Positions 1 through 23,452 of a DNA stretch of 64,000 nt are shown piece by piece; the first letter of the stretch is position 1, and each line of letters begins with the position of its first letter. The notes under the pieces are model-generated. The model was given only the letters and a program-made list of their open reading frames with translations, searched no databases and had not been told where the DNA came from. The stretch is from a virus (lineage: Duplodnaviria; Caudoviricetes): the IMG/VR virus record IMGVR_UViG_3300042483_000388; one strand, given 5' to 3'. The position numbers and the translations under genes were made by a program.

Positions 1-72
1 GAACATCAGGAACCAATGGAACATCAGGAACCAATGGAACATCAGGAACCAATGGAACATCAGGAACCAATG
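1..72 (+). repeat. Perfect 18-bp tandem repeat (GAACATCAGGAACCAATG) x4, coding GTSGTN
   Basis: Four identical 18-nt units are read directly at 1-72, followed by a partial fifth. Confidence 0.95.
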
Positions 73-3000
73 GAACATCGGGTTCAAGTGGTACTAACGG
101 AACGAATGGGACTAGCGGAACTTCAGGTACTTCAGGCACTAATGGTTCATCAGGTACTAATGGTTCATCAGGCACTAATGGTACGTCAGGCACTAATGGT
201 TCATCAGGCACTAATGGTACGTCAGGTACTAATGGGACAAACGGAACATCAGGAACCTCTGGTTCAAGTGGGACATCAGGAACCTCGGGTTCAAGTGGTA
301 CTAATGGTACGAGTGGGGTGAATGGTACTTCAGGTACTGACGGGACTTCTGGCACAAATGGTACGGACGGAACTAGTGGTACAAACGGAACAAGTGGAAC
401 ATCTGGAACGAATGGAACGAATGGAACGAATGGGACAAGCGGCACAGATGGAACATCAGGAACAAATGGTACAAGCGGAACTAACGGAACTAGTGGTACA
501 AACGGAACTTCAGGAACTAATGGAACTAATGGAACTAGTGGAACATCAGGGACAAACGGTACGAATGGAACATCAGGGACAAATGGTACTAGCGGTACCG
601 ACGGAACATCAGGTACAAATGGAACTAGCGGTAGTTCAGGAACAAACGGAACATCAGGAACAAATGGAACTAGCGGTACTGATGGAACGAATGGCACATC
701 GGGCACATCAGGAACTAATGGCACATCAGGAACTAATGGAACTAATGGGACAGATGGAACTAGTGGAACAAATGGGACTTCTGGAACTAATGGAACATCA
801 GGGACTAATGGAACATCAGGGACTAATGGAACTAATGGAACTAATGGAACTAATGGGTCTTCGGGTTCAAGCGGAACTAATGGGACATCTGGTACTAACG
901 GAACTTCGGGAACAGACGGAACTAGTGGAACTAATGGAACATCAGGATCAAGTGGTACAAATGGTACTAGCGGAACTAATGGGACTAGCGGAACTAATGG
1001 CACTAGCGGAACATCAGGATCAAGTGGTACGGACGGGACTTCAGGTACAAATGGAACTAGTGGAACTAACGGTACTTCGGGAACGGACGGGACTTCAGGT
1101 ACAAATGGAACTAGTGGAACTAACGGTACTTCGGGAACAGATGGGACATCAGGTACCAACGGAACATCAGGAACTAGCGGTACCGACGGAACATCAGGTA
1201 CAAATGGGACCAGCGGAACAAATGGAACTAGCGGTAGTTCAGGAACATCAGGAACAAACGGGACTTCAGGAACTAACGGAACATCAGGAACAAATGGTAC
1301 TGATGGTACATCGGGAACAAATGGGACTAGCGGTACTGATGGTACAAACGGAACTTCAGGAACAAATGGTACAAACGGAACTTCAGGGGCTAATGGATTT
1401 TCAACAGGTTTAGTTTATTATTTTAACCCTTCATCAGCATCTACAATTCCAACTTACTATGTTATGGATAGAAACATAGTGATAGGTGCCGGAACAACAT
1501 TAACTGCAACAGGGGGTGGAACACAACTAATAGGATCATTTTCAACAATTATTGGAGACCCTGGAATAACTACAATACCGTCAGGAAATTGGAACTTTGA
1601 GAATTACGTTGGTATGAGTTCCAATGGTGGTACTCCAAATTTATATGCTGATATATATATTAGAACAACAGGTGGTACTGAAACTTTAATTGGATCAAAT
1701 AGTGTATTACCCCACTCCATTACCGACGGTACGGTTGTGGAACTTTATTTATATTCGGTACCTGTATCCGCAACAACGGTAAATATTAATGATAGAATAG
1801 TCGTTAAGTTCTATGCAACCTCATTAGGTGGAAGAACAATGACTTGTTATTTTGAAGATGCGACAATTGCTCAGGTAACCACTTCATTATCACCATTTAT
1901 TGCGGGAACATCAGGTACAGATGGTACTTCAGGCACTAACGGTACTAGTGGTACAAATGGTACAAACGGAACTTCTGGGACTAATGGATCTAGCGGTACA
2001 AATGGAACTAACGGAACAAGTGGTACTAATGGAACCTCAGGAACTAATGGTACGGATGGTAGTTCGGGAACAAGCGGAACTTCAGGTTCATCAGGGACTA
2101 GTGGGACAAATGGAACAGATGGGTCTTCAGGTTCAAGCGGTAGCTCAGGCACTTCAGGATCTAATGGGTCTTCAGGAACAAGTGGTAGTAACGGAACAAA
2201 TGGAACGAATGGAACTTCAGGGACTAATGGAACAAACGGAACATCAGGGACTAATGGAACATCAGGAACAAATGGTACGAACGGGACTTCAGGTACAAAT
2301 GGAACTTCGGGAACAAATGGGACAAACGGAACATCAGGTACGAATGGTACTAGCGGTACTAGCGGAACTAACGGAACTAATGGAACTTCAGGTACAAATG
2401 GTACAAATGGTACGAGCGGGACCAACGGAACTTCAGGAACAAATGGTACAAATGGATCGTCAGGAACTAATGGAACTTCAGGTACAAACGGAACAAATGG
2501 AACTTCAGGTACTAATGGTACGAGCGGAACAAACGGAACAAGTGGATCATCACCTGCAGTACCAGGTTCAGATAATCAAGTTTTAACGTCAAACGGATCA
2601 GGAGGAATAGTTGCCGAATCTCTTTTAACATTTGATGGTACAAAATTAAGTGTATTGTATCAGGCTGGTGATGAAGGTGGGGAAATCCTATTAAACAAAC
2701 CTGTAACTAACACTACCATTTCAGGTACAGGGGTCACTTTTGACATATGGCAAGATAGAATTAGGTTTTTTGAACAAGGTGGTACTGCAAGAGGTGCGTT
2801 TCTTGACATAACCGCATGTGCTGCGGGTGTCGGTACAAATTTATTAACATCTGCCGGAACTTCAGGTACAAATGGAACTTCAGGAACGAATGGTACAAAC
2901 GGAACTTCAGGGACGAACGGTACTAATGGAACGTCGGGAACAAACGGTACGAATGGAACTAGCGGTACTAATGGAACATCAGGTACCAATGGAACAAATG

Positions 3001-4910
3001 GTACGTCGGGGACTAATGGAACATCAGGTACGAATGGGACTTCTGGAACTAGCGGAACTAATGGAACATCGGGAACTAACGGAACAAATGGTACTAGCGG
3101 AACAAACGGCACTAGCGGAACAAATGGAACTAATGGAACTTCAGGTACCAACGGCACTTCAGGAACAGATGGGACATCTGGTACTAACGGTACCAATGGA
3201 ACTTCAGGTACGGATGGAACTAGCGGAACATCAGGTACGGATGGAACTAGCGGAACATCAGGAACTAGTGGGGAAAACGGAATATCCGCAGGTCAAACAT
3301 ACTACTTCAATGAAAGTCAGAATAGTGATGTTTTAGGATATAAGGTATTATCAACAGAACCATCAACCGCATCAACACAAACAGTAACAACAAATTTATT
3401 AGGAATCCAACAAAACGTTTTAGTTTCTGATTACATAACACCACAATTAGGGTTTTCAGTTATTCCTGGTGGCGTACAAAGATTTCATTTACATTACTTA
3501 AAACCGGCAAGTAATGATGATATAGATGCATATGTTGAAATACAATTGGCAGATTCATCAGGAACAACTATAGGTCCAACAATAACTTCTAACATTTCAT
3601 TAATTGGTTGGGTTAGTGCGGTAATCCCTGTTGAAGTAAATGTAGATATAGTATTACCAACAACAACAATAGATCCAACAAATAGAATGATTGTTAGATT
3701 ATATTTGAGTAATAATGATGCAACGGCACATTCGGTGGTATATTATACTGAAGGTAATTCATATTATTCATTTGTTGTTACCTCAGTTGGCGCGATTGCC
3801 GGTACGTCAGGGACTTCAGGTACAAATGGAACCAGCGGTACTTCTGTTTCAGTTCCTGGATTAAACAATGAAGTTTTAACATCTGATGGATCAGGAGGTA
3901 TAGTTGCAGAAACTAATTTAATATTTAGTGGGTCACAATTATCCGTAACAGGTACGGTAGTAACTTATGGGTTTGCTCTTCCTAATATAGATACGTCAAC
4001 AGGATATTTAACCACATCAACACCTATGGTAACGTCTACTTCTATTGATTGGCTCAGTAGAATCGCCTATGATGTTTCTAGTACTTCAAGTATTAATTGG
4101 ACGAGTAGATATTTAACGGACTCATATCCTATTACTTCTGTTGATTGGGAAACTAAATATTTAAATGCGTATGACTTAACTACATCAGGGGCCACTCTTA
4201 GTGTTGATTGGAATTCTAGGTCATTATATTCATTTAGACCTCTTCCTATGCCAACTTCCACTCTTAGTGTGGATTGGCAGAATAGAACATTGAATGATAG
4301 TGGTGGTATTTCTTCAGTAGCATGGAGAGATCGCACCTTATACACACCTAATGGAACAACATCTTTAAATTGGACGGATGATACTTTTTTAGATTCAAAT
4401 GTTTATCAACGTGATTATAAATCTGCCGTTATACAAAACGCAGTATCAAATAACTATAACATTCCATATGGGTCATATTTAGGGGATGTAATTGAAGTAG
4501 ATGGTTCTACGACCTTTATGGATGCAGCAGTAACAGATGGAAATTTAGTTTATTTAGATACTAACGCCACTTGGTATCCTGTTAATCAAGCGGCAAGTGG
4601 GGCCACTTTCCTATTAGGTATTGCACATAACGTATATGCTCCTGGTGGAACAGGGTATGTTTTACTAGAAGGACATGTTGTAATTGATGATACATCATTC
4701 TCAGGACCAAATGTGCAAGGTGCGGATCATGGTTTACCAATATATATTAGAGATGGAACAACTCAGGGTCTTATGTCAACAGTCGTTCCTACTACGACTG
4801 GTGGACCAAATATAGTAAGAGTGTTAGGTCATTGTTACCAACAAAACTCAGGAACAGCAACACAATGGATGATGAAATTTAGACCATCAAATGATTGGAT
4901 AGAAATATAA
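3..4910 (+). CDS. Very long Gly-Thr-(Ser/Asn/Asp) repeat fibre-like virion protein with embedded globular domains (5'-truncated; true start lies upstream of the window)
   Basis: The frame of ORF 318..4910 is open from position 3 (aca tca gga acc aat gga = TSGTNG...). It has three long G-X-Y triplet blocks, two related ~170-aa non-repetitive domains starting G(F/I)SxGxxYYFN, two VPGxxNxVLTSxGSGGIVAE modules, and C-terminal S(I/V)(D/N)WxxR repeats. Confidence 0.8.
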   Translation, partial: TSGTNGTSGTNGTSGTNGTSGTNGTSGSSGTNGTNGTSGTSGTSGTNGSSGTNGSSGTNGTSGTNGSSGTNGTSGTNGTNGTSGTSGSSGTSGTSGSSGTNGTSGVNGTSGTDGTSGTNGTDGTSGTNGTSGTSGTNGTNGTNGTSGTDGTSGTNGTSGTNGTSGTNGTSGTNGTNGTSGTSGTNGTNGTSGTNGTSGTDGTSGTNGTSGSSGTNGTSGTNGTSGTDGTNGTSGTSGTNGTSGTNGTNGTDGTSGTNGTSGTNGTSGTNGTSGTNGTNGTNGTNGSSGSSGTNGTSGTNGTSGTDGTSGTNGTSGSSGTNGTSGTNGTSGTNGTSGTSGSSGTDGTSGTNGTSGTNGTSGTDGTSGTNGTSGTNGTSGTDGTSGTNGTSGTSGTDGTSGTNGTSGTNGTSGSSGTSGTNGTSGTNGTSGTNGTDGTSGTNGTSGTDGTNGTSGTNGTNGTSGANGFSTGLVYYFNPSSASTIPTYYVMDRNIVIGAGTTLTATGGGTQLIGSFSTIIGDPGITTIPSGNWNFENYVGMSSNGGTPNLYADIYIRTTGGTETLIGSNSVLPHSITDGTVVELYLYSVPVSATTVNINDRIVVKFYATSLGGRTMTCYFEDATIAQVTTSLSPFIAGTSGTDGTSGTNGTSGTNGTNGTSGTNGSSGTNGTNGTSGTNGTSGTNGTDGSSGTSGTSGSSGTSGTNGTDGSSGSSGSSGTSGSNGSSGTSGSNGTNGTNGTSGTNGTNGTSGTNGTSGTNGTNGTSGTNGTSGTNGTNGTSGTNGTSGTSGTNGTNGTSGTNGTNGTSGTNGTSGTNGTNGSSGTNGTSGTNGTNGTSGTNGTSGTNGTSGSSPAVPGSDNQVLTSNGSGGIVAESLLTFDGTKLSVLYQAGDEGGEILLNKPVTNTTISGTGVTFDIWQDRIRFFEQGGTARGAFLDITACAAGVGTNLLTSAGTSGTNGTSGTNGTNGTSGTNGTNGTSGTNGTNGTSGTNGTSGTNGTNGTSGTNGTSGTNGTSGTSGTNGTSGTNGTNGTSGTNGTSGTNGTNGTSGTNGTSGTDGTSGTNGTNGTSGTDGTSGTSGTDGTSGTSGTSGENGISAGQTYYFNESQNSDVLGYKVLSTEPSTASTQTVTTNLLGIQQNVLVSDYITPQLGFSVIPGGVQRFHLHYLKPASNDDIDAYVEIQLADSSGTTIGPTITSNISLIGWVSAVIPVEVNVDIVLPTTTIDPTNRMIVRLYLSNNDATAHSVVYYTEGNSYYSFVVTSVGAIAGTSGTSGTNGTSGTSVSVPGLNNEVLTSDGSGGIVAETNLIFSGSQLSVTGTVVTYGFALPNIDTSTGYLTTSTPMVTSTSIDWLSRIAYDVSSTSSINWTSRYLTDSYPITSVDWETKYLNAYDLTTSGATLSVDWNSRSLYSFRPLPMPTSTLSVDWQNRTLNDSGGISSVAWRDRTLYTPNGTTSLNWTDDTFLDSNVYQRDYKSAVIQNAVSNNYNIPYGSYLGDVIEVDGSTTFMDAAVTDGNLVYLDTNATWYPVNQAASGATFLLGIAHNVYAPGGTGYVLLEGHVVIDDTSFSGPNVQGADHGLPIYIRDGTTQGLMSTVVPTTTGGPNIVRVLGHCYQQNSGTATQWMMKFRPSNDWIEI
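1029..1136 (+). repeat. Perfect 54-bp tandem duplication inside the Gly-Thr repeat coding region
   Basis: ACGGACGGGACTTCAGGTACAAATGGAACTAGTGGAACTAACGGTACTTCGGGA occurs at 1029-1082 and 1083-1136. Confidence 0.9.
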
Positions 4911-4911
4911 T

Positions 4912-5265
4912 ATGCCACCCCCATCAAGCAAAATATCAGGAATACCAGTAACATCCATAATTAATATGAAGAGTGTTAATGTAACATCTATTGTTTCAAT
5001 AGGTGGAGTATCTACATCAAATATTCCTGGATGGCCAAGTGGTAGTGGGTGCGAAACACTTATTTTAGGTTATGCTTCTGGTCCACCCCCTACACAGGCA
5101 TGTAGAAATAGAACAAATGAATACCAATTTGACTCTACTAATAGTATTTTATATGGTGTTGGAGAACCTTGCGGTGGCATACCAGCCCCTAACGGCTTTT
5201 ATTCTGATGGTAGGTCAATTTACACTTGGTTTGACGGAATATGGGGATTTGGGGGACCTTGTTAA
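4912..5265 (+). CDS. Small Gly/Pro/Cys-containing hypothetical protein, probably fibre- or virion-associated
   Basis: 117-aa ORF starting 1 nt after the fibre gene stop; N-terminal KISGIPVTSI..SIGGVS repeats and a C-terminal PAPNGFYSDG..W motif. Confidence 0.6.
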   Translation: MPPPSSKISGIPVTSIINMKSVNVTSIVSIGGVSTSNIPGWPSGSGCETLILGYASGPPPTQACRNRTNEYQFDSTNSILYGVGEPCGGIPAPNGFYSDGRSIYTWFDGIWGFGGPC

Positions 5266-5271
5266 TTTATA

Positions 5272-8196
5272 TTATCTGTTATCTATATAGATGATTACTT
5301 CACTATAGTATTCTATAAAATGATCATTCCATAGATCCCATTTAATATCTACACCATCTACGGAGAAAACTTGTATGTTATCAAATTGTGGAAAGATATT
5401 ATCTCTAAACCATCTGAACTTACATTTATGAAAACTATCATCATCTCTCATATGAAATTCCGTTACAATTTTTGGAATTGTTTTTAAAAACTCAATATTA
5501 CTTTGTTGGAACACATCGTATTCACCACCTTCACAATCACACTTTAAGAAATCTATTTTATCAATTCCGTTTTCATCTAAAAATTCTTTGAATGTAAATG
5601 TTGGAACACTCTCACTAACATTATCCCAAGTGATATGAATTTTCTTTTTATCTGTGATTGCCCCTTGAATAATTTTTACATTATCTTGACCAACATTTTT
5701 ATGAAGTATACCAACTTGGTATGATAATGGTTCCACAACATAACATTGTTTTGGATTCTTTGGTAAGATTTTATATGTGAACGGACCTAAGGACGCACCT
5801 AAATCAACAACAACATCACCTTCTTCAACTTCAAAATGTCTTTCATATGTATTATCTTCAAATATCTCTTTAATTGCAGCATCAACATACCAACCACTTT
5901 TTTTACCCCAGTCAAATTCAACCTCATCAAAATTTTCTTCCGTTACCCCTTCATTATTAATAATTCTATTTATTTGTTTAATTACCATATCAGAACTTAT
6001 TCGATTTGTACATTCAAACATTCGATCGGTATTTTTATGTAAAGGACACCAATTCCAGTCGCCAGCATCTAATCTTTCTGAATTAAAACATCCGTGACAA
6101 ACACTTTCATTAATAACTCTATATGTGTCTAAAGTTGTTTCTGCCCATTTCTCACTAAACCCTGAAATCAAAACAATAGGTAATTTACAAGCCCAAGCCA
6201 ACCAAGATAAACCAGACCCTAAACCAATAAAAAACTCACAACTTGATAGGTCATTAATAACTTCTTGTAGGTTTCCTCCTTTATAAATTGTTACGCCTTC
6301 AGGATAATGGTTACCCATATAGCCATCACCTTCTTTAGAATAGACCATGCATTCATATCCCAAATTATTAAGATGATCTATAACCGCTTGCCAAGCGTCA
6401 GGATTATTCCAATACTTTGCCTGTGCCGTAGAATGAAAACCAATACCCACTTTTTTCTTTTTAGGTGTGTTAGGTAATTTTAATAGTGGTCTAACTTCTT
6501 CATAATCTAAACCTAATATATCCGTTGCCGTTTTTTGTAATGGCATTTTTTTAAAATCAAATGGGTGTTTGTTTGCGTCAAATTTACCATCTTCATTATA
6601 AAACCAACCTAAATTATATTGTGCGTGTATGTTTGGTATTAATTCGCCAGGTTCAACAAACTCAATTTCAGGATACTGATCTTTAAACAAACTATTAAGG
6701 AATGTCGATACTATCGGTTTGCAACCATGTTTTTTTCTAAATACCTCACAATAAGGAACCCAAGCCATTGTATCACCTAATGATTTTGATCCGAATGAAA
6801 TATATACTCTCTTATCTTTTAGATCTAATGTCTCATCATAAATTACTTCACCATTTTCTTCAACTGTTGTTCTCCATTTAATGAAATATTCTTTATTTAA
6901 TTTAACCCAACTATTAATTGACAATTCATTTTGATATGATATTTCATTTTTATCATCATAATATTTAATATTCAATTTGTTTTCTGTGGTTCCTTGTATT
7001 TCAAAATAAGGTTGGGTAACATAATGTCTAACAAAGGTATAATCTTTGGTTAAAGGTTTGTTTTGGGTAATGTTTATATTTGTAACTGCGTTATAAAAAT
7101 TCAATAAATCTTCACCAAATGTATCATCAGGTAATATTTTATAAACGTCCTTATTTTCAATAAGTTCAACCAATTGTTTTGATATGTTTTTAACATCACC
7201 TTCTATTGGTGTTATATATCCGTCAAACATACCCATGTATTGTGGTAAATCTCTTGCAAGGATTTTCATTCCATAGTTGATTGATTCTCTAACAACCAAC
7301 GGATTACATTCCCAAGTTGAGTTAAACATTAAAACATCGCAAGCCGTCATGAATTTCTCAACGTCAGATCGTTCCCCCCATACTTTAACATTAGAAGGAA
7401 GGTCTTTCATAATAGGACCCCAATAGTCTTCAAAGTTTGGAGCTTGGTTCCCAATAAAATGAAATTCAATATCTGAGTTTGATTCAATTAATTCTTTTGC
7501 AACCTCAACACCTTCACCTTGATTTTTACCACTTGTCCATAACCCAACATTAAGTACGTGAGTTTTAAACATATCCAAACCAAGTTCATTTCTTACTTTA
7601 ATTTTTTCAATAAGTGGTACTTGATTAAAATCACCATAGATTTCATTCTCCTCTAAAATTTTAGTTACCTTATTCTCAATTGGGTATAACGATAAAAACT
7701 TAATTGGTGTTTCATTTAAAAACGTTTCCTTTAAATGATAAGGGGTAACAAAACAATATGCCTCAGGATTGAATTTTTTATGTGTTTGCGGATTAAACCA
7801 AACATTATGACAAGTCTCAACCATTTTCCAAGTCCTATCATTTGAATAAAGTTGATTTAACAATGGTAGCGGAATTTTATTAAAACTTTCAAACCCTTCA
7901 ACCATCTCTTCTGAATGGACAATATCAATATGATTGTTTTTAATAATATCAATTAACTCATATTTTCTTTTTGTGTTACTTGTATCCCCTAAACTAAAAA
8001 AATGACCTTCACCCAATATATCAATTATTTTATCTCGTTGAACAACATATGTATTACTAAACTGAGAATACTCAACCAAAAAGATTTCAATTTGGTCTTT
8101 GAATTTTTGAAGTTCTTGAATTCTTTTTAATACGAATTGGGGTTGTCCTCCAGTTGAAAGATGAGGTGTAAGATATAATAGTTTAATTTTTTTCAT
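5272..8196 (-). CDS. Tri-domain enzyme: GT4-like glycosyltransferase + TibC/AAH-type autotransporter O-heptosyltransferase + FkbM-family methyltransferase
   Basis: N-terminal GT-B motifs (PHLSTGGQPQ; GERSDVEKFMTACDVLMFNSTWECNPLVVRES). Middle domain with TibC-like motifs (DETLDLKDKRVYISF..SLGD..WVPY; QAKYWNN; FFIGLGSGLSWLAWA..P.VLISGFS; CHGC..WCP.HKNTDR.FECT). C-terminal VVDLGASLG and IDFLKCDCEGGE. Start moved from 8214 to the MKKIK ATG at 8196. Confidence 0.85.
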   Translation of the reverse strand: MKKIKLLYLTPHLSTGGQPQFVLKRIQELQKFKDQIEIFLVEYSQFSNTYVVQRDKIIDILGEGHFFSLGDTSNTKRKYELIDIIKNNHIDIVHSEEMVEGFESFNKIPLPLLNQLYSNDRTWKMVETCHNVWFNPQTHKKFNPEAYCFVTPYHLKETFLNETPIKFLSLYPIENKVTKILEENEIYGDFNQVPLIEKIKVRNELGLDMFKTHVLNVGLWTSGKNQGEGVEVAKELIESNSDIEFHFIGNQAPNFEDYWGPIMKDLPSNVKVWGERSDVEKFMTACDVLMFNSTWECNPLVVRESINYGMKILARDLPQYMGMFDGYITPIEGDVKNISKQLVELIENKDVYKILPDDTFGEDLLNFYNAVTNINITQNKPLTKDYTFVRHYVTQPYFEIQGTTENKLNIKYYDDKNEISYQNELSINSWVKLNKEYFIKWRTTVEENGEVIYDETLDLKDKRVYISFGSKSLGDTMAWVPYCEVFRKKHGCKPIVSTFLNSLFKDQYPEIEFVEPGELIPNIHAQYNLGWFYNEDGKFDANKHPFDFKKMPLQKTATDILGLDYEEVRPLLKLPNTPKKKKVGIGFHSTAQAKYWNNPDAWQAVIDHLNNLGYECMVYSKEGDGYMGNHYPEGVTIYKGGNLQEVINDLSSCEFFIGLGSGLSWLAWACKLPIVLISGFSEKWAETTLDTYRVINESVCHGCFNSERLDAGDWNWCPLHKNTDRMFECTNRISSDMVIKQINRIINNEGVTEENFDEVEFDWGKKSGWYVDAAIKEIFEDNTYERHFEVEEGDVVVDLGASLGPFTYKILPKNPKQCYVVEPLSYQVGILHKNVGQDNVKIIQGAITDKKKIHITWDNVSESVPTFTFKEFLDENGIDKIDFLKCDCEGGEYDVFQQSNIEFLKTIPKIVTEFHMRDDDSFHKCKFRWFRDNIFPQFDNIQVFSVDGVDIKWDLWNDHFIEYYSEVIIYIDNR

Positions 8197-8247
8197 ACTA
8201 TAAAAATAAAACATACATTTTAATTGTGAAGTTCATATCATTATAGA

Positions 8248-9195
8248 ATGAAAGATGTTTGTGTTGATGTGTTAGGATGTAGATCGTTAGGGGATACCTT
8301 AGCCGTTACACCAACTTTAAGAAAACTTTATAATTCTTACGGTAAAAAAATATCTGTCGCAACTCATCACCCCGAAATTTTTAAAAACAATCCTTACGTA
8401 GATAATATTTTTAATGAAATTACAGACGACATTAAAAATGATTATGAAGTATTTGAATCCTTTAATATTGGATACCACCCAAACGGTGTTTGTTATAAAC
8501 ATAACGCAATGGATATTAGACAATTTCATGCGGTTAATTTAGGGTTTATGTTGACCAGAGATGAAATGTCAATGGACTATTTTCCTGATGAGGTAGAATT
8601 AATTGAGGGGTTACCTGAAAAATATGTTTTAATTCACCCCGTTCAAAATTGGAATTCAAGAACATGGGATGAAAAAAAATGGCAAATGTTAACAAAACTC
8701 TTAAATGAAAGAGGTATTGCCGTTATTTCTGTTGGAAAAGATTCATCAGAACTTGGTGGTTCAAATGTGGATAAACCCGTTTTTAATTTTAATATTGATA
8801 TTGGTTTGAATTTAATGAACCAAACAACCTTATCTCAAACATGGTGGCTAATTAATAGTGCAATGTGTTTCATTACTATGGATTCAGGATTACTTCATTT
8901 AGCAGGAACAACAGACTCAGAAATAATCCAACTTGGAAGTTCAATACATCCTCAATTTAGAGCACCATATAGAAAAAATAATCAAGGTCATAAATACCAT
9001 TATGTTCTTGGTGGTTGTGGTTTACATTGTGCATCAGATATTAAATACGGAGTTAAAGAATGGAAATCAATACAAGGTATACCATCACTCGTTAATTGTT
9101 TAGAAAGAAAAGAAACATTTGAATGTCACCCCAACCCAATTATTATTTATAATAAAGTTTTGGAAATATTAGATTTAGAATATTTATGTAGATAA
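8248..9195 (+). CDS. GT9-family (heptosyltransferase-like) glycosyltransferase
   Basis: SLGDTLAVTPTLRKL, HPEIFKNNPYVD, LIHPVQNWNSRTW and FITMDSGLLHLAGTT are GT9 motifs; Cys-rich C-terminus. Confidence 0.8.
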   Translation: MKDVCVDVLGCRSLGDTLAVTPTLRKLYNSYGKKISVATHHPEIFKNNPYVDNIFNEITDDIKNDYEVFESFNIGYHPNGVCYKHNAMDIRQFHAVNLGFMLTRDEMSMDYFPDEVELIEGLPEKYVLIHPVQNWNSRTWDEKKWQMLTKLLNERGIAVISVGKDSSELGGSNVDKPVFNFNIDIGLNLMNQTTLSQTWWLINSAMCFITMDSGLLHLAGTTDSEIIQLGSSIHPQFRAPYRKNNQGHKYHYVLGGCGLHCASDIKYGVKEWKSIQGIPSLVNCLERKETFECHPNPIIIYNKVLEILDLEYLCR

Positions 9196-9565: not shown

Positions 9566-10810
9566 ATGAATACAATATTTATACAAATCGCCTCCTATCG
9601 TGATCCCCAACTTAGTTTAACAATCTCAGATTGCATTAAGAACTCTAAATACCCCAAAAATTTGGTATTTGGTATTTGTAATCAATATCACCCTGACGAT
9701 GAATTTAATATTGATGAATATCAGAATGACAAAAGATTTAGAATTGAAAATGTTTTATATTCAGATTCTAAAGGGGCTTGTTGGGCTCGTAACTTATTAC
9801 AACAAAGATATAGTGGAGAAACTTACACATTACAAATAGATTCTCATATGAGATTTTCTCCCGATTGGGACATTGAGATGATTAAAATGGTTAAACAACT
9901 TCAAAAGAAAGGACATAAAAAACCTTTATTAACGGGTTATGTTTCATCATTTGATCCCGAAAATGATCCACAGGGAAGAGTAAATGAACCATGGAGAATG
10001 TCTTTTGATAGATTTACACCTGAAGGTGTTGTGTTCTTTTTACCTGAGGTTATCCCTGGATGGAAAAAATTAAAAGAACCTATCCCTTCCAGATTCTATT
10101 CCGCACATTTTTGTTTTACATTGGGGCAATTTGTCAATGAAGTCCAACACGACAAAGATTATTATTTTCACGGAGAAGAAATTTCTATTGGCGTAAGATC
10201 CTTCACATATGGGTATGATTTATTTCATCCTCACAAAGTTTTAATTTGGCACGAATATACTCGAAAAAACAGAACAAAAAGTTGGGATGACGATAAAGAT
10301 TGGCATAAGAAAAACACAGCTTGTCATATAAAGAACAGACAACTTCTTGGTGTTGATGGAGAAGTTTATGATGGAGACTACTCACAATACTTTGGTAATG
10401 AAAGAACCATTAGAGATTACGAAAGATATTCCGGAATTTTATTTTCTAAAAGAGCTGTTCAACAAGATACTTTAGATAAGAAATACCCACCCAACGATTA
10501 CCCATATTCGTCCGAAACAGAATGGATTAATTCTTTTGCCACAATATTTAAACATTGTATAGACATAAATTTAAATAGTGTTCCAGAAACAGATTATGAT
10601 TTTTGGGTTGTTGCCTTCCATAACGCAAAAGATGAAACAATATATAGACAAGATGCTGACGCAAACGAAATTTTAAGAATAAAAAATGATCCCGATGGAT
10701 ATGGAAAAATATGGAGAGAGTTTAATGCAACCGAAATACCAAAATATTGGGTGGTATGGCCACACTCCATATCTAAAGACTGGTGTGAAAGAATAGTAGG
10801 TAATTTATGA
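9566..10810 (+). CDS. GT60-like GlcNAc transferase (Skp1-hydroxyproline GlcNAc-transferase family)
   Basis: IFIQIASYRD, GACWARN, LQIDSHMRF (DxH metal motif), FHGEEISIGVRSFTYGYD and WHEY match the family signature as I recall it. Confidence 0.8.
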   Translation: MNTIFIQIASYRDPQLSLTISDCIKNSKYPKNLVFGICNQYHPDDEFNIDEYQNDKRFRIENVLYSDSKGACWARNLLQQRYSGETYTLQIDSHMRFSPDWDIEMIKMVKQLQKKGHKKPLLTGYVSSFDPENDPQGRVNEPWRMSFDRFTPEGVVFFLPEVIPGWKKLKEPIPSRFYSAHFCFTLGQFVNEVQHDKDYYFHGEEISIGVRSFTYGYDLFHPHKVLIWHEYTRKNRTKSWDDDKDWHKKNTACHIKNRQLLGVDGEVYDGDYSQYFGNERTIRDYERYSGILFSKRAVQQDTLDKKYPPNDYPYSSETEWINSFATIFKHCIDINLNSVPETDYDFWVVAFHNAKDETIYRQDADANEILRIKNDPDGYGKIWREFNATEIPKYWVVWPHSISKDWCERIVGNL

Positions 10811-12474
10811 TAACATTAGTAACGGGTTTATGGGACATAGGTAGAGGTGACCTTAGTGAAGGTTGGTCAAGATCGTACCAACATTATCTTAATAAGTTTG
10901 AGGACTTACTTAAGGTAGAGAACAATTTAATCATCTTTGGTGATGAGGAATTAGAAAAGTTTGTTAAAGAGAGACGACAAGACCACAACACCCAATTTAT
11001 TGTTAGAGACTTAACTTGGTTTAAAAATAATGAATTTTATAATCAAATACAATCAATAAGGACAAACCCAAAATGGTATAATCTTGCGGGGTGGTTAACG
11101 GACTCAACTCAAGCAAAATTGGAAATGTATAATCCATTGGTTATGTCAAAAATGTTTATCCTTCACGACGCTTTGCTCTTGGATAAGTTTGTCTCAGAAA
11201 AACTATATTGGATTGATGCTGGATTATCAAATACTGTTAATTTAGGTTATTTCACAAAAGACAATGTATTACCAAATATCGATAATCTTTTTGATAAGTT
11301 CACGTTTATTTGTTTTCCATATCAAGCCAACACAGAGATACACGGATTTGATATTAAACAAATGGATAAATACACTAGAGATAGAGTTGATAAAGTTTGT
11401 CGTGGAGGTTTCTTTGGTGGACCAATTGAGGACATAAGACAAATGAATACCTTGTATTATAATTTAATTAAAGATACATTATCAAAAGGTTTAATGGGAA
11501 CAGAAGAAAGTTTATTCTCAATTCTATTATATAACAACCCAACCTTAATTGATTATGTTGAAATAAATGGTGACGGATTATTGTATAAGTTTTTTGAAGA
11601 TGTTAAAAACAATGATGTAAAAATCAAAACAATTTCAAGACCGAACGAAGTTATTAAGAAAACAAATGGTGGTGTTGGTTTATATGTTATAACATTTAAC
11701 AGCCCAAAACAATTTGAAACCTTAATTAAAAGTATGTTAGATTATGATCCGGACTTTATTAATAAGACAAAGAAGTTTTTATTGGATAACTCCACAGACC
11801 TATCAACAACTCCGAGATATAAAGAATTGTGTGAAGAGTATAACTTTGAACATATTAAGAAAGATAATATAGGTATTACTGGTGGTAGAGTGTTTGTTGC
11901 CGAACATTTTGATGAAACTGATTTGGACTTTTATTTTTTCTACGAAGACGACATGCTATTTTATTCAAAACCAAACTCAAAATGTAAGAACGGATTTAGC
12001 AGAAATTGTGATAAATTATATGACAAAGCTCTTCATATTATGAAGAAAGAGGAATTAGATTTTCTCAAGTTAAACTTTACGGAATTTTTTGGTTCGCACG
12101 AAAAACAGTGGTCGTGGTATAACGTGAGCAATGAATTTAGAAAAGAACATTGGCCGTTTAATCAAAACTTGCCGGTGCAAGGTCAAGACCCAAACTCACC
12201 AAATTTAGAATTTAAAAACATTAAATCACATAATGGGTTATCATATGCGACTGGTGAAATCTTTTTAAGCAATTGGCCGATCGTGTTAAATAGAGACGGC
12301 AATTACAAATGTTATTTAGAAACAAAATTTGCCCATCCTCACGAACAAACGGTGATGAGTCAATGTTATCAAGAAACCGTTAAGGGTAGAGTTAAGTCGG
12401 CAGTTTTATTACTTACACCAACAGAACACAACCGTTTCGATTTTTATGAGGCACATTTGAGAAAAGAATGTTAA
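10807..12474 (+). CDS. HtrL/YibB(WlaTC)-family glycosyltransferase fused to a GT2-like domain
   Basis: N-terminal ITLVTGLWDIGR, YNPLVMSKMF, YWIDAG, GGFFGG and GTEESLF. C-terminal LYVITFNSP, LLDNSTD and FYEDDM. ATGA overlap with the upstream gene. Confidence 0.7.
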   Translation: MITLVTGLWDIGRGDLSEGWSRSYQHYLNKFEDLLKVENNLIIFGDEELEKFVKERRQDHNTQFIVRDLTWFKNNEFYNQIQSIRTNPKWYNLAGWLTDSTQAKLEMYNPLVMSKMFILHDALLLDKFVSEKLYWIDAGLSNTVNLGYFTKDNVLPNIDNLFDKFTFICFPYQANTEIHGFDIKQMDKYTRDRVDKVCRGGFFGGPIEDIRQMNTLYYNLIKDTLSKGLMGTEESLFSILLYNNPTLIDYVEINGDGLLYKFFEDVKNNDVKIKTISRPNEVIKKTNGGVGLYVITFNSPKQFETLIKSMLDYDPDFINKTKKFLLDNSTDLSTTPRYKELCEEYNFEHIKKDNIGITGGRVFVAEHFDETDLDFYFFYEDDMLFYSKPNSKCKNGFSRNCDKLYDKALHIMKKEELDFLKLNFTEFFGSHEKQWSWYNVSNEFRKEHWPFNQNLPVQGQDPNSPNLEFKNIKSHNGLSYATGEIFLSNWPIVLNRDGNYKCYLETKFAHPHEQTVMSQCYQETVKGRVKSAVLLLTPTEHNRFDFYEAHLRKEC

Positions 12475-18449: not shown

Positions 18450-20660
18450 CTATTGACAGATAACCTTACCCTTTAAGGTTGGTGGTACTTGTAGTTCAAT
18501 TGGTTCTAAAATGTCTTTATCAACAAATTTATACGCATTTATTTTTGTGTATTTGGGATCTATTCTAAACCTTATGGATAATCTTTTTTCGTCACAACCT
18601 CTTTGACCTTTATTAGACCAATAAAGTTCTATGAATTCTGTAGGTATTAAAATATTGTTTTCATAAAAAATCCCCGACATTTTACTTTTTACCTTTTGTA
18701 AAAAATTTTCAGACAATTGATTTTTTTCTAACCATATAAAGATTCTTTCTATTAACTTATTATATAATTCAATATATGCCGGTTTTTGATTAAGTATTGA
18801 ACTCTCCTTAAAAATTGAAAAGAATTCAGATAAATAACTATCAATAAATGGGTCCATTTTTTTAACCTCAAAAAAAGAACCTTTAGGATAAATAACATTT
18901 CCTTCTTCATCTTTAAAGTCTGACTTACTTTCTAAATCTGCCTTTATGTAATGTGACCCACTTTTAAATGAATTTGATAAACAATTAGTTATCCTAAAAA
19001 AATGGTAGTTTATTGTTTCTTGACCCGATTGAATTTTAACTAATGTATCAAATAATTTTTCTTTTGCGTCATCAGAACAAGCGTAATTTAATTGCAATCT
19101 TGTTGATTTTTTATTGAAGAAATCCCCAACAAATCTATTTTCGTATTTTTGATGTTCCAAGTATCTTGCGTTACGCAAAAGAGAATCTAAATTTTCTGGT
19201 GCTATGGAAGTATTTTTTTGTTTTTTTAAAACTCTAAAAGTTTCTGTTTCATTAAAATTTTTATCTTTTATAAAATCAGAAATTAATTCTAAAAAGTTTA
19301 TAGTTTTTTCTTGGTTTTGTAATGAAAGATTTATAATTTGAGGGAATGTCCCAACAATCTTCTTACTAAAAAAATTATCTAACATTAGTATGGAATGTTC
19401 TAATCTTTGAATAAGATTTTGATCTGTAAGTGTGTCTCTAAAAGCTTTAAGTTTACAAAACGGAGAGTCGTTAATTTTTTTTAATTCGGTATATTCACAC
19501 AAATAGGTTATTTTCGATTGTTGTCTTAATGCAATCTCATTTATCTTAACTATTCTAGATTCTTTTAATGGTTTGTTTTTTGTTCTTAACACATAAAGTT
19601 GGTTAACAAATTCCCAATTAACACTATCCCAAAACTTTTTAATATATTCATCTCTTTTGTTTTGATATTTTAAATAGTAAGCGTGTTCCCAAACATCAAG
19701 ACCAAGAAGTGGATATCCACCACCTTTAACTATATTCATTAATGGATTGTCCTGATTTGGTGTGGACATAATTTTTAACTCATTATTTTTTGATAAATAT
19801 AACCAAGCCCATCCAGAACCAAAACGTTCTTTTGCTGCTTCATTAAACTCATCCTTCATTTTTTTTATGTTTCCAAAATCCAATGTAATTTTTTTTAGAA
19901 TATCCCCTTTAGGAAGTTGTTTCTTTGGTGAGAGCATTTTCCAAAACAATGCGTGATTAAAAGCACCACCCGCATTATTTCTAACTTTGTCATCAAACTT
20001 ACTAATTGTTTTAATTATTTCTTCTAACTCTATATCACCATCTTTGTTTTTCAAAGCGTCATTTAATTTTTTAACATAACCCTTATAGTGTTTGTTATAG
20101 TGAATGTCCATAGTTTTGGAGTCTATGAACTTACTTAATGACGAATAAGAATAAGGTAATTTTTCAATACCGATTTTTTTCATTTCAAGAATTAAGTTTT
20201 CCTTAACCCCACCTTTTTCTATTAATAAAAGTTGTTCATTAATAATTCCCAACCTTTTTTTAATTCCTTTATCCTCAAACATCATATCTCGGATTTCGGG
20301 AAATTTCTTTTCAAACATTTTAATTAATTGACCAGCAAATGCGTTTGCTTCATCTTCATTTTTACCTCCAATATCTGGACCATGTTCTCTGTTTAATATT
20401 GTTAATTGGTATTCGTGAACCCACTCGTGAGCTAAAGTTCTTAATATATCACGATTAAGTCGTCCTTTTGATAGTATTTTTAATGTTGAATCCATTGTCC
20501 TACTTCCTGTGGACATTTCACTATCTCTAACCCCTAAAAAATTAATTTTTAAATCATTCCTTAATGGGTATTTTGTTTGTAAGAATGCGATAAATTTCTT
20601 GGTAAGAACTTTATCTTCCTTGGTCATATCGCATTTTATATGTTTGATCGAAACTTTCAT
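18450..20660 (-). CDS. Fusion: IrrE/ImmA-like HExxH metallopeptidase + Fe/Mn superoxide dismutase + unknown C-terminal domain
   Basis: LAHEWVHE...EDEANAFAG (zincin/M78-like). SOD motifs LPYSYSSL, IHYNKHY, NHALFW, FGSGWAWL, TPNQDNP and DVWEHAYY, with all four metal ligands present. Confidence 0.85.
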   Translation of the reverse strand: MKVSIKHIKCDMTKEDKVLTKKFIAFLQTKYPLRNDLKINFLGVRDSEMSTGSRTMDSTLKILSKGRLNRDILRTLAHEWVHEYQLTILNREHGPDIGGKNEDEANAFAGQLIKMFEKKFPEIRDMMFEDKGIKKRLGIINEQLLLIEKGGVKENLILEMKKIGIEKLPYSYSSLSKFIDSKTMDIHYNKHYKGYVKKLNDALKNKDGDIELEEIIKTISKFDDKVRNNAGGAFNHALFWKMLSPKKQLPKGDILKKITLDFGNIKKMKDEFNEAAKERFGSGWAWLYLSKNNELKIMSTPNQDNPLMNIVKGGGYPLLGLDVWEHAYYLKYQNKRDEYIKKFWDSVNWEFVNQLYVLRTKNKPLKESRIVKINEIALRQQSKITYLCEYTELKKINDSPFCKLKAFRDTLTDQNLIQRLEHSILMLDNFFSKKIVGTFPQIINLSLQNQEKTINFLELISDFIKDKNFNETETFRVLKKQKNTSIAPENLDSLLRNARYLEHQKYENRFVGDFFNKKSTRLQLNYACSDDAKEKLFDTLVKIQSGQETINYHFFRITNCLSNSFKSGSHYIKADLESKSDFKDEEGNVIYPKGSFFEVKKMDPFIDSYLSEFFSIFKESSILNQKPAYIELYNKLIERIFIWLEKNQLSENFLQKVKSKMSGIFYENNILIPTEFIELYWSNKGQRGCDEKRLSIRFRIDPKYTKINAYKFVDKDILEPIELQVPPTLKGKVICQ

Positions 20661-22489: not shown

Positions 22490-23452
22490 ATGAATAAGTT
22501 TGAATTATATGGATTATTTTGTCCCGACACAGATCAATTAAAATATATTGGTATAACAAAAAATGGATTACAAAAAAGATTAAAAAACCATTTAAAAAAA
22601 CCAACAAATAAATTTATTTCAAAATGGTTCAGTTCTTTGAGTGATGAGAATAAAATCCCAATAATTAGACAAATAAAAGAATGTAATACCTACGATGATT
22701 TACTACAATCTGAAATATATGAAATTTCAAAATATAGAAAATTAAACTTTGATTTATATAATCTTACCGACGGTGGAGATATCAATCCTATGTTGGGTAA
22801 AACACATAGTGAAGAATCTAAAAAAAAAATATCTCTAATACATAAAGGTAAAAAATTATCAGAAGACGAAAAGTTAAAAAGAAAAGAACGCATCAAAGAA
22901 TTATGGTCAGATACAGAGTGGTCAGAAAAAATTAAGAAAAAAATGAGTGATAACACCAAAGGAGAAAAAAATCCTAACTGGAGAGGTGGTTTTAGAAATT
23001 TAACTTGTTTGTGTGGTAATAAAAAAAACCATTATTCTAAAACTTGTTTGAAATGTAGGGATTGTTATGGTAAAAAAAATAATTTTTTTAATAAAAAACA
23101 TAGTAAAGAAACCTTATCAATTTTAGCGGAAAAAAGTAAAAAGTTTGGTAATGAAAATCCTAATTTTAAATATGATATTAAAAGTGATGAACTATATGAT
23201 TTATATGTTGTAAAAAATAAAACCATAATTGAAATTAGTAATTTATTTAATTGTCATATAAACACAATAAATAAAAAATTGAGACAATATAAAATATATA
23301 AACCAAAATCTAATATTTATAATTTAGTGGTTGATGAGATAAAAAATCATTTAATAAATGAATTAAATTATGTTCAGATTGGTAAAATCTATGGTTGTAG
23401 TAATAAAATCATACATAAATTTGTAAAAAAAAATAACATATATGTCAAATAG
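22490..23452 (+). mobile_element. Free-standing GIY-YIG homing endonuclease with NUMOD3 repeats
   Basis: LYGLFCPDTDQLKYIGIT (GIY-YIG variant), YNLTDGGD, and NUMOD3-like GKTHSEESKKKIS and KKHSKETLSIL; very A-rich; overlaps the next gene by 11 nt. Confidence 0.85.

Follow-up and report, generated by a model that had tools for sequence, protein, structure and literature searches.

The question raised by the IMG/VR virus record IMGVR_UViG_3300042483_000388 is what an enzyme resembling the autotransporter heptosyltransferases TibC and Aah is doing in a tailed phage, and on which protein it would act. The 64,000-nucleotide stretch of this record that was analysed is referred to below as the window. 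From the sequence alone, an original prediction had placed at 5272-8196 a near-complete TibC/Aah homolog with an intact four-cysteine finger, lying between a GT4 and an FkbM domain, and profile, alignment and structural model now agree with that description. On the strength of sequence and modelling, it is close to certain that the central module is a TibC-fold glycosyltransferase. We also think it fairly probable, from comparative genomics, that the enzyme would O-glycosylate the neighbouring fibre protein, the other two domains extending and methylating the sugar.

The TibC-like module of the fusion protein

The strand of the gene had been left unstated and was found to be the minus strand. 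According to the list of open reading frames (ORFs) and the translation, the frame is open to a first ATG at 8214 (5272..8214, 980 amino acids, aa), and residues are numbered throughout on this 980-aa ORF (P0001). Close homologs begin with MKKIKLL, which corresponds to the second ATG, so the true start is likely to be at 8196 and the protein to have 974 aa, and 5272-8196 is likely to be the real gene. Each of the motifs originally quoted was found in the translation, the cysteines of the 'iron finger' at exactly the positions given for them. The gene is made up as follows:

5272..8196, minus strand: GT4 + TibC/Aah-like + FkbM fusion gene, 974 aa from the ATG at 8196
7045..8196, minus strand: GT4 (retaining GT-B) domain, residues ~7-390, from Pfam, the EX7E motif and the model
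5947..7041, minus strand: TibC/Aah-like (BAHT-like) domain, residues ~392-756, from TIGR04414, the TibC match and the model
5275..5922, minus strand: FkbM-family S-adenosylmethionine (SAM)-dependent methyltransferase domain, residues ~765-980, from TIGR01444 and PF05050
6772-6774, minus strand: codon of D481 in SLGD, equivalent of the TibC catalytic base Asp-110
residues 597-604, minus strand: AQAKYWNN, from the translation
residues 667-675, minus strand: SGLSWLAWA, from the translation
6010..6099, minus strand: four-Cys 'iron finger' CHGC...WCPLHKNTDRMFECT, with C706, C709, C723 and C735

Against the NCBIfam profile TIGR04414 (hepto_Aah_TibC) the central domain scored 283.1 bits (E = 3e-84, residues 416-751), the curated equivalog cut-off being 200 bits and the match spanning profile positions 31-374 of 374. 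Among PDB sequences the TibC chains 4rap and 4rb4 were the sole strong matches (E = 7e-69, residues 434-756), with an identity of ~40%, so that both of the alignments originally suggested as a check, to TibC and to TIGR04414, were strong. Pfam returned only a weak GT9 (PF01075) match for this domain.

When residues 392-765 were modelled with AlphaFold from an alignment of 49 rows, the result had a predicted local distance difference test (pLDDT) value of 95.4 and a predicted template modelling (TM) score (pTM) of 0.91, and contained an eight-stranded N-terminal barrel. The top PDB matches found by Foldseek were 21 TibC chains (TM 0.82-0.87 over ~376 columns), and superposition on PDB 4RAP/4RB4 gave a TM of 0.86, the beta-barrel being superposed too. 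Lipopolysaccharide (LPS) heptosyltransferases, which had been named beforehand as the best structural matches to be expected were the prediction wrong, ranked next, with WaaC, WaaF and a Veillonella GT9 at TM ~0.5. The model follows the plan of the TibC protomer, with an N-terminal beta-barrel, a GT-B core, a beta-hairpin thumb and the finger insertion. A two-copy (homodimer) prediction of the domain scored 0.00, which was taken as evidence neither way.

The TibC structure allows this comparison to be extended to single residues. TibC is a ring-shaped dodecamer of back-to-back dimers joined via the thumb, the tip of which is formed by Phe-265 and Val-266, and its beta-barrel, thumb and iron finger serve protein-substrate handling (PMC4358343). 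Asp-110 is the catalytic base, Thr-226 and Lys-230 bind the beta-phosphate, Trp-305 binds the heptose O4, and a ferric ion (1Fe-0S finger) is held by Cys-339, 342, 358 and 370 (PMC4358343). Arg-286 forms a hydrogen bond with adenine N1, accounting for adenosine diphosphate (ADP) specificity, and its mutation abolished or largely diminished activity, while Pro-300 (Ser-294 in Aah) selects D,D- vs L,D-heptose (PMC4358343). Equivalent residues, taken from the HMMER alignment to TibC and an alignment of 385 domains, were:

TibC D110: D481, kept (Asp in 378 of the 385 domains)
TibC T226: T596, kept (near-invariant in the 385 domains)
TibC K230: K600, kept (near-invariant in the 385 domains)
TibC W305: W671, kept (near-invariant in the 385 domains)
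TibC C339, C342, C358, C370: C706, C709, C723, C735, kept (each Cys in 374-377 of the 385 domains)
TibC R286: V652 (codon 6259..6261, minus strand), changed
TibC P300: G666 (codon 6217-6219, minus strand), changed
TibC F265, V266 (thumb tip): Tyr, Met, changed

Over the 385 aligned domains, the Arg-286 column held Val 215, Arg 50, Leu 47, Ile 37, Thr 21 and Ala 11. The Tyr/Met pair at the thumb tip is retained in most domains of the clade to which the window protein belongs (clade B, below), an observation that is only suggestive with regard to the formation of a ring dodecamer. By sequence comparison the phage enzyme would be predicted to bind iron, and its oligomeric state is likewise a matter of prediction.

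Two clades of enzymes and the repeat proteins beside them

The fusion gene is convergent with the gene of a giant fibre protein, the end of which lies 360 bp from it, with one small ORF in the interval:

3..4910, plus strand: giant fibre protein, cut by the window start, 1635 aa seen; predicted acceptor
4912..5265, plus strand: 117-aa ORF between the fibre and fusion genes, no family match

The fibre protein has four long proline-free tracts of Gly-Thr-Ser, Gly-Thr-Asn, Gly-Thr-Asp and Gly-Ser-Ser (~275 triplets) with globular domains between them, matches Pfam Collagen (E = 3e-112) and PHROG tail-fibre families, and is the only such repeat ORF in the window.

To place the enzyme, a tree of 108 dereplicated TibC-like domains was made by a quick IQ-TREE search, with a midpoint root only, and each locus was labelled by the genes found up to 6 kb away from the TibC-like gene. 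An AIDA-like ORF was defined by a phmmer match with Salmonella AIDA-I or a Paraburkholderia AIDA-repeat protein, and a repeat ORF by Gly-X-Y repeats of at least 15 triplets with at least 35% Ser+Thr. A single branch with 100% support in the Shimodaira-Hasegawa-like approximate likelihood ratio test (SH-aLRT) parts two clades:

Clade A, 34 rows: AIDA-linked 17, repeat-linked 0, no such neighbour 4, flanks too short 13
Clade B (with the window protein), 74 rows: AIDA-linked 0, repeat-linked 42, no such neighbour 9, flanks too short 23
Arg-286 position, clade A: Arg 34/34
Arg-286 position, clade B: Val 39, Ile 10, Arg 10, Thr 8, Leu 6, Ala 1

Clade A includes genes of E. coli, Salmonella, Paraburkholderia, Lentisphaeria and Selenomonadales, so that the window protein falls outside the clade of characterised autotransporter enzymes. 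The AIDA and repeat labels need one change on the tree, and the Fisher p of 2e-11 on the labelled rows overstates independence, since the clade split is a single evolutionary event. Shorter GTS/GSS tracts were found directly beside the gene in two of the clade-B loci counted as having no such neighbour.

These results bear directly on whether the protein is a canonical autotransporter heptosyltransferase, with AIDA-I/TibA-type adhesins of the host as targets of hyper-heptosylation by the phage. The protein does pass the TIGR04414 equivalog cut-off, its catalytic and iron-finger residues are conserved, and the automatic name given to homologs by the Joint Genome Institute (JGI), 'autotransporter strand-loop-strand O-heptosyltransferase', agrees with such a role. 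However, an AIDA-like ORF was present at 17 of the 21 labelled clade-A loci but at none of the 74 clade-B loci and nowhere in the window, the fully supported branch separates the protein from every AIDA-linked enzyme, and Arg-286 is not conserved, all of which makes this role highly improbable. Given its placement in a clade that is never AIDA-linked, complementation of AIDA-I, as proposed in the original prediction, is probably the wrong assay for a clade-B enzyme.

Among the phages, 52 of 82 related loci (many of the 82 being truncated) have a Gly-X-Y ORF that is rich in Ser/Thr and up to 3100 aa long, and in many cases it directly adjoins the enzyme gene. The relative G001 (IMGVR_UViG_3300034117_001582; 291,867 bp, 99% complete), whose TibC-like domain is 89% identical, has in its whole genome exactly one such ORF (181,311-190,079), ~2 kb from the fusion gene. 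The nearest isolate, Microcystis phage Mel-JY01 (sheath identity 33%), encodes on its plus strand a protein of at least 1016 aa with collagen-like (GTSGSSGTSGTR)n tracts, whose ORF stops 1.7 kb upstream of the gene for a 1226-aa FkbM...TibC fusion. In the deposited record of this phage (PP395634.1) the repeat ORF, at 2-3049 on the plus strand, is unannotated; minus-strand hypothetical coding sequences (1-651 and 739-2298) are given instead, with only the last 178 codons (2519-3052) on the plus strand, and the deposited annotation probably misses the fibre gene.

In bacteria, the neighbours of clade-B genes are small proteins with a signal peptide or lipobox followed by (GTS)n, (GSS)n or (GTT)n tracts, and were found in Methylococcales, Pseudobdellovibrionaceae, Burkholderiaceae, Bradyrhizobium, Acidiferrobacterales, Arenicellales and other Gammaproteobacteria. 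Most of these repeat loci have no homolog of the GT4 or FkbM module of the window. That the TibC-like gene stands alone in many bacteria suggests that the TibC-like enzyme is the one that starts the glycan on the protein.

As a control, 10 whole bacterial genomes (3.1-5.2 Mb) with a clade-B gene were searched for runs of 6 or 8 Gly-(Ser/Thr)-(Ser/Thr) codon triplets. In eight of the ten, every match (29, 6, 28, 41, 11, 13, 3 and 13 overlapping matches, respectively) lay at most 2 kb from the TibC-like gene, with none elsewhere in the genome, and the reversed pattern gave 0 matches. No eight-triplet match was present in the remaining two genomes, that of Methylomicrobium lacus, which is complete, and one with interrupted repeats. 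The tracts are thus essentially unique in their genomes and stand beside the enzyme, which is the strongest evidence for the repeat as the partner of the enzyme.

The same control is relevant to the idea that other Ser/Thr- or Pro/Thr-rich tracts, such as those of the capsid, sheath or linkers, are the real acceptors and that the fibre is a syntenic bystander. Some clade-B phages indeed have no repeat ORF in the 6 kb on either side of the gene, and there is a precedent in the mycobacteriophages, whose encoded glycosyltransferases, as Freeman et al. are said to have reported in 2023 (cited in PMC12619734), decorate the C-termini of their own capsid and tail-tube proteins. Nevertheless, the bacterial clade-B genes pair specifically with Gly-Ser/Thr tracts that are unique in their genomes, and the complete phage G018 (182,846 bp), in which no repeat ORF occurs within 6 kb of the gene, still encodes five such fibres elsewhere. 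We therefore regard other acceptors as unlikely.

A candidate pathway for fibre glycosylation

If the fibre is the acceptor, the modules flanking the TibC-like domain and the genes next to the fusion gene have to be taken into account. The GT4 domain was identified by Pfam Glycos_transf_1 (residues 207-356, 33.2 bits vs a gathering score of 26.4), with Glyco_trans_1_4 also exceeding its gathering score, and by an EX7E motif (E302..E310) that is invariant in the alignment. Its model had a pLDDT of 94 and was placed by Foldseek with BshA, PimB', MshA, WaaG and HepE (TM 0.55-0.66); sugar specificity was not assignable, as many GT4 enzymes rank alike. Identity with WaaG, the sole PDB-sequence match of the domain, was not accepted, the match (E = 0.056) being non-significant. 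The FkbM domain exceeded the cut-offs of TIGR01444 (57.7 bits vs 37.7, residues 801-921) and PF05050 (42.8 bits vs 22.7), and carries the class-I SAM-binding glycine motif VVDLGASLG at residues ~800-808.

GT4-TibC-FkbM is the commonest architecture among the relatives, some of which have an extra GT2, a second methyltransferase or other combinations of modules, and in more distant phages GT4, TibC-like and FkbM are separate adjoining genes. Such a 'Rosetta stone' pattern, with modules fused here and separate neighbours elsewhere, supports a shared pathway. The 'assembly line' put forward in the original prediction gains indirect support from it, the order of the steps still being conjectural.

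Beyond the fusion gene, four more genes form a block that is conserved in close relatives in the order GT9, 99-aa ORF, GT60-like and HtrL, after which PolB follows. Three of them are:

8248..9195, plus strand: GT9-family glycosyltransferase, 315 aa, without the iron finger (PF01075, 56.4 bits)
9566..10810, plus strand: PF11397 'GlcNAc' (GT60-like) glycosyltransferase (Pfam E = 8e-65)
10807..12474, plus strand: HtrL/YibB-like domain protein, 555 aa (PF09612; TIGR02192 below cut-off)

The GT9 gene is divergent from the fusion gene at a distance of 33-51 bp, adjoins it in most related phages, and has weak matches to LPS heptosyltransferases II and III and to TIGR04414. The best-known members of the PF11397 family are eukaryotic cytoplasmic protein O-GlcNAc (O-linked N-acetylglucosamine) transferases; the GT60-like protein of the window also matches phrog_24687 nearly end to end (E = 2e-157) and is thus widespread in phages. 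In a more distant phage (L003, 13,404-16,759), sulfotransferase, APS (adenosine phosphosulfate)-kinase-like and small cytidylyltransferase-like ORFs lie between the fusion gene and the collagen-like giant, and the glycan or fibre may also be sulfated in some lineages.

In the mechanism that we propose, the TibC-like module, by analogy with TibC/Aah, would take a sugar from a nucleotide donor, probably an activated heptose that the host provides, and attach it to Ser/Thr hydroxyls of a repetitive protein. The acceptor would be the Gly-Thr-Ser/Asn/Asp tracts of the adjoining collagen-like fibre, modified in the infected cell before virion assembly. The GT4 module would then add a further sugar, which the FkbM module would O-methylate, the divergent GT9, GT60-like and HtrL-like genes would probably complete the glycan, and the decorated fibre would be built into the virion. 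Acceptor, donor and order of steps are all predictions from the gene content and homology described.

A different use of the same modules would be to remodel the host envelope by altering the LPS core, O-antigen or capsule, for example blocking superinfection or aiding release. Glycan-modifying genes are common in phages, the GT9, GT4 and HtrL/YibB families are best known from LPS core clusters, and the non-significant match of the GT4 domain is to WaaG. The central domain, however, has a TM of 0.86 to TibC vs ~0.5 to WaaC/WaaF and keeps the beta-barrel, thumb and iron finger, which are the protein-substrate handling parts in TibC, and an LPS enzyme would not be expected to pair, exclusively and genome-wide, with Gly-Ser/Thr repeat proteins in bacteria that are unrelated to one another. 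There is consequently only a small chance, in our estimate, that the envelope is the target.

With regard to the donor of the proposed fibre glycosylation, the original prediction had cautioned that ADP-heptose synthesis genes are missing. This is true of the window, in which no heptose-pathway gene was found, and of the closest complete relatives, whereas some other members of the clade carry gmhA-like genes. Such genes (~180-188 bits, cut-off 209) were present in 5 of 21 enzyme-encoding phage records, all of which have Val at the Arg-286 position. A small cytidylyltransferase-like ORF of G001 scored 70 bits on RfaE domain II (cut-off 181). The record G004 (IMGVR_UViG_3300042558_004148, 373,485 bp) has a gmhA-like isomerase (118,794-119,264), a PfkB kinase (39,163-40,050) and an RfaE-domain-II-like nucleotidyltransferase (317,253-317,645), three scattered genes that could constitute a phage-encoded ADP-heptose pathway. 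Beside the bacterial homologs only a single clade-A locus had an HldE-like neighbour, which is uninformative. The donor is probably heptose and, in this phage, supplied by the host, as judged from sequence; the lost adenine contact together with Gly at the stereoselector makes a heptose donor uncertain.

In a more radical alternative, the central module would be catalytically altered or would not use heptose, taking another nucleotide sugar or acting as a repeat-binding scaffold for GT4 and FkbM. The replacement of the adenine-contact Arg by Val and of Pro-300 by Gly would fit this, as would the want of a phage-encoded heptose pathway in most close relatives. On the other hand, the residues for catalysis (Asp), beta-phosphate binding (Thr and Lys) and heptose O4 binding (Trp) are near-invariant in the 385 domains, and gmhA-like genes also occur in phage lineages that have Val at the Arg-286 position, which leaves this alternative quite improbable.

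A number of observations weigh against the proposal that the enzyme glycosylates the fibre with a heptose-based glycan. The function of clade B is a prediction from homology, models and gene linkage, and the split from clade A counts as a single event. The adenine-contact Arg-286 is Val here and mostly Val, Ile, Leu or Thr in clade B, and with its loss donor binding may differ. Neither a GmhA-type isomerase nor a PfkB kinase is encoded by the near-complete relatives G001-G003 (and G005). The PHROG tail-fibre matches of the acceptor are largely due to the repeats themselves, the phage record G016 (85% complete) is without any repeat ORF, and the linkage of the genes in phages could partly be inherited synteny. 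Finally, M. lacus (NZ_CP169217.1, 352,110-369,195) has a 536-aa clade-B ORF and no eight-triplet tract anywhere in its genome.

In comparison with known systems, the phage enzyme resembles TibC/Aah in identity (~40%), in fold (TM 0.86; barrel, GT-B core, thumb and four-Cys finger), in its donor-site residues and in being a cytoplasmic enzyme encoded next to the gene for a highly repetitive Ser/Thr-bearing protein. It differs from them in belonging to a sister clade, in being phage-encoded and fused to GT4 and FkbM, in the changes of Arg-286 to Val and Pro-300 to Gly, and in its neighbour, a Gly-Ser/Thr triplet-repeat protein rather than a beta-helical AIDA-type passenger. The LPS heptosyltransferases WaaC, WaaF and WaaQ (GT9) share the GT-B family and a weak PF01075 match, and a plain GT9 gene adjoins the fusion gene, but they are remote (TM ~0.5, 12-16% identity), lack the barrel, thumb and iron finger, and use lipid-linked acceptors. 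Cytoplasmic O-glycosylation of long Ser/Thr repeats is carried out on serine-rich-repeat adhesins by GtfA/GtfB, and in BclA, a collagen-like exosporium glycoprotein of Bacillus, the Thr of Gly-X-Thr triplets is glycosylated by dedicated neighbouring glycosyltransferases. The initiating enzymes in these two systems, GT4 for GtfA/B and rhamnosyltransferases for BclA, are unrelated to TibC, and their substrates are Gram-positive surface proteins and not phage fibres. Virion glycosylation in the mycobacteriophages also differs in its enzymes and in having capsid and tail-tube C-termini as acceptors.

Two systems of eukaryotic viruses are closer in arrangement or in substrate. The A064R protein of chlorovirus PBCV-1 has three domains, namely two rhamnosyltransferases and a methyltransferase (PMC9614988). 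Its two glycosyltransferase modules and terminal O-methyltransferase, all in one viral polypeptide, form the end of the glycan carried by a virion protein, which makes A064R the best functional analog for the proposed extension and methyl-capping. Its folds are unrelated (GT-A-like and a new glycosyltransferase family, with no homology), and its glycan is N-linked to the capsid protein of a eukaryotic virus. Mimivirus L230 hydroxylates Lys and glucosylates the hydroxylysine of viral collagen-like proteins (PMC9614988). It is similar in being a virus enzyme acting on low-proline Gly-X-Y proteins of the virus itself, and different in enzyme family and chemistry.

No paper linking TibC-type enzymes with phages or collagen-like repeats was found in full-text searches of the literature. 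New here are the two-clade split with its residue correlate, the lipoprotein partners in bacteria and the genome-wide exclusivity control. It is possible, although we put this forward only tentatively, that clade B represents a general and undescribed system of phages and bacteria for the O-glycosylation of proline-free Gly-Ser/Thr triplet repeats, and that the phage fibres are sugar-coated. Protein O-heptosylation by TibC/Aah is textbook enteric-adhesin biology. Should the broader idea be true, the known acceptors of the family would include collagen-like or mucin-like repeats in addition to beta-helical autotransporters, and its range of organisms would grow to take in abundant freshwater phages and many environmental bacteria, in which the clade-B enzymes would glycosylate small lipoproteins and secreted proteins of unknown function. 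Thousands of entries named 'autotransporter strand-loop-strand O-heptosyltransferase' would then be mis-described. The fibre glycan, methyl-capped and heptose-based, would resemble an LPS inner core on protein (TibC-like, GT9, GT4 and HtrL-like steps), and might replace hydroxyproline in helix stabilisation or tune host adhesion. Glycosylation of its fibre by the phage would bear on host recognition, on particle stability and on the stabilisation of a proline-free collagen-like helix. The hypothesis is directly testable, since the gene of the predicted acceptor adjoins that of the enzyme and ADP-heptose is made by E. coli.

The phage, its relatives and other genes of the window

The window, with a G+C content of ~33%, comes from a lake-water phage, T4-like and of jumbo size (~280-290 kb), and not from an enteric bacterium. 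Its genes include those of a tail sheath, a gp19-like tube, a T4 baseplate protein, gp25, gp32, a DnaB-type helicase, PolB and a ribonucleotide reductase. Exact words of the fusion gene occurred in at least 19 lake-water metagenome runs. Metatranscriptome contigs on the gene were 150-380-nt pieces with 1-10% differences, for which DNA carry-over or relatives are possible sources, and expression is not claimed. The similarity of the sheath C-terminus to Flavobacterium phages was too weak to use as a pointer to the host. The 'Moraphage' lineage (PMC12619734) was not equated with this phage, as it lies outside the T4 group, and the paper on it names neither heptosyltransferases nor collagen.

Megablast of the fusion gene against isolated phages gave no match, and tblastn gave Mel-JY01, three huge uncultured phages and one FkbM-only match. 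Among 5.8 billion proteins there were 4632 multi-domain relatives at E <= 1e-10, on contigs of up to 390 kb and mostly the same ~975-aa fusion, with a further 3364 shorter ones. Relatives are also encoded by 286 IMG/VR contigs and by at least 570 stretches in the species genomes of GTDB (Methylococcales, Burkholderiaceae, Bradyrhizobium, Lentisphaeria, Selenomonadales, Enterobacteriaceae and others). A library at 50% identity held 759 clusters at E <= 1e-30, the best 150 of which were mostly multi-domain and some of which carry two or three TibC-like domains. The description of the family as known from enteric pathogens thus holds for where it has been studied and not for its range. In four metagenomic proteins of 900-1030 aa (P0244, P0252, P0316 and P0323), three stretches match the query, which suggests tandem TibC-like domains.

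Three further genes of the window had unusual features. The tail sheath protein (25292-28645, plus strand, 1117 aa) has its sheath Pfam domains in the last ~280 residues, the N-terminal ~800 being an unexplained extension. A 736-aa protein (18450-20660, minus strand) contains a complete Fe/Mn superoxide dismutase (Sod_Fe_N + Sod_Fe_C, residues 166-354) flanked by unassigned N- and C-terminal regions, a fusion that is unusual for a phage. Between an SNF2 helicase and the structural genes lies a 320-aa ORF (22490-23452, plus strand) with a NUMOD3 motif, which is homing-endonuclease-like.

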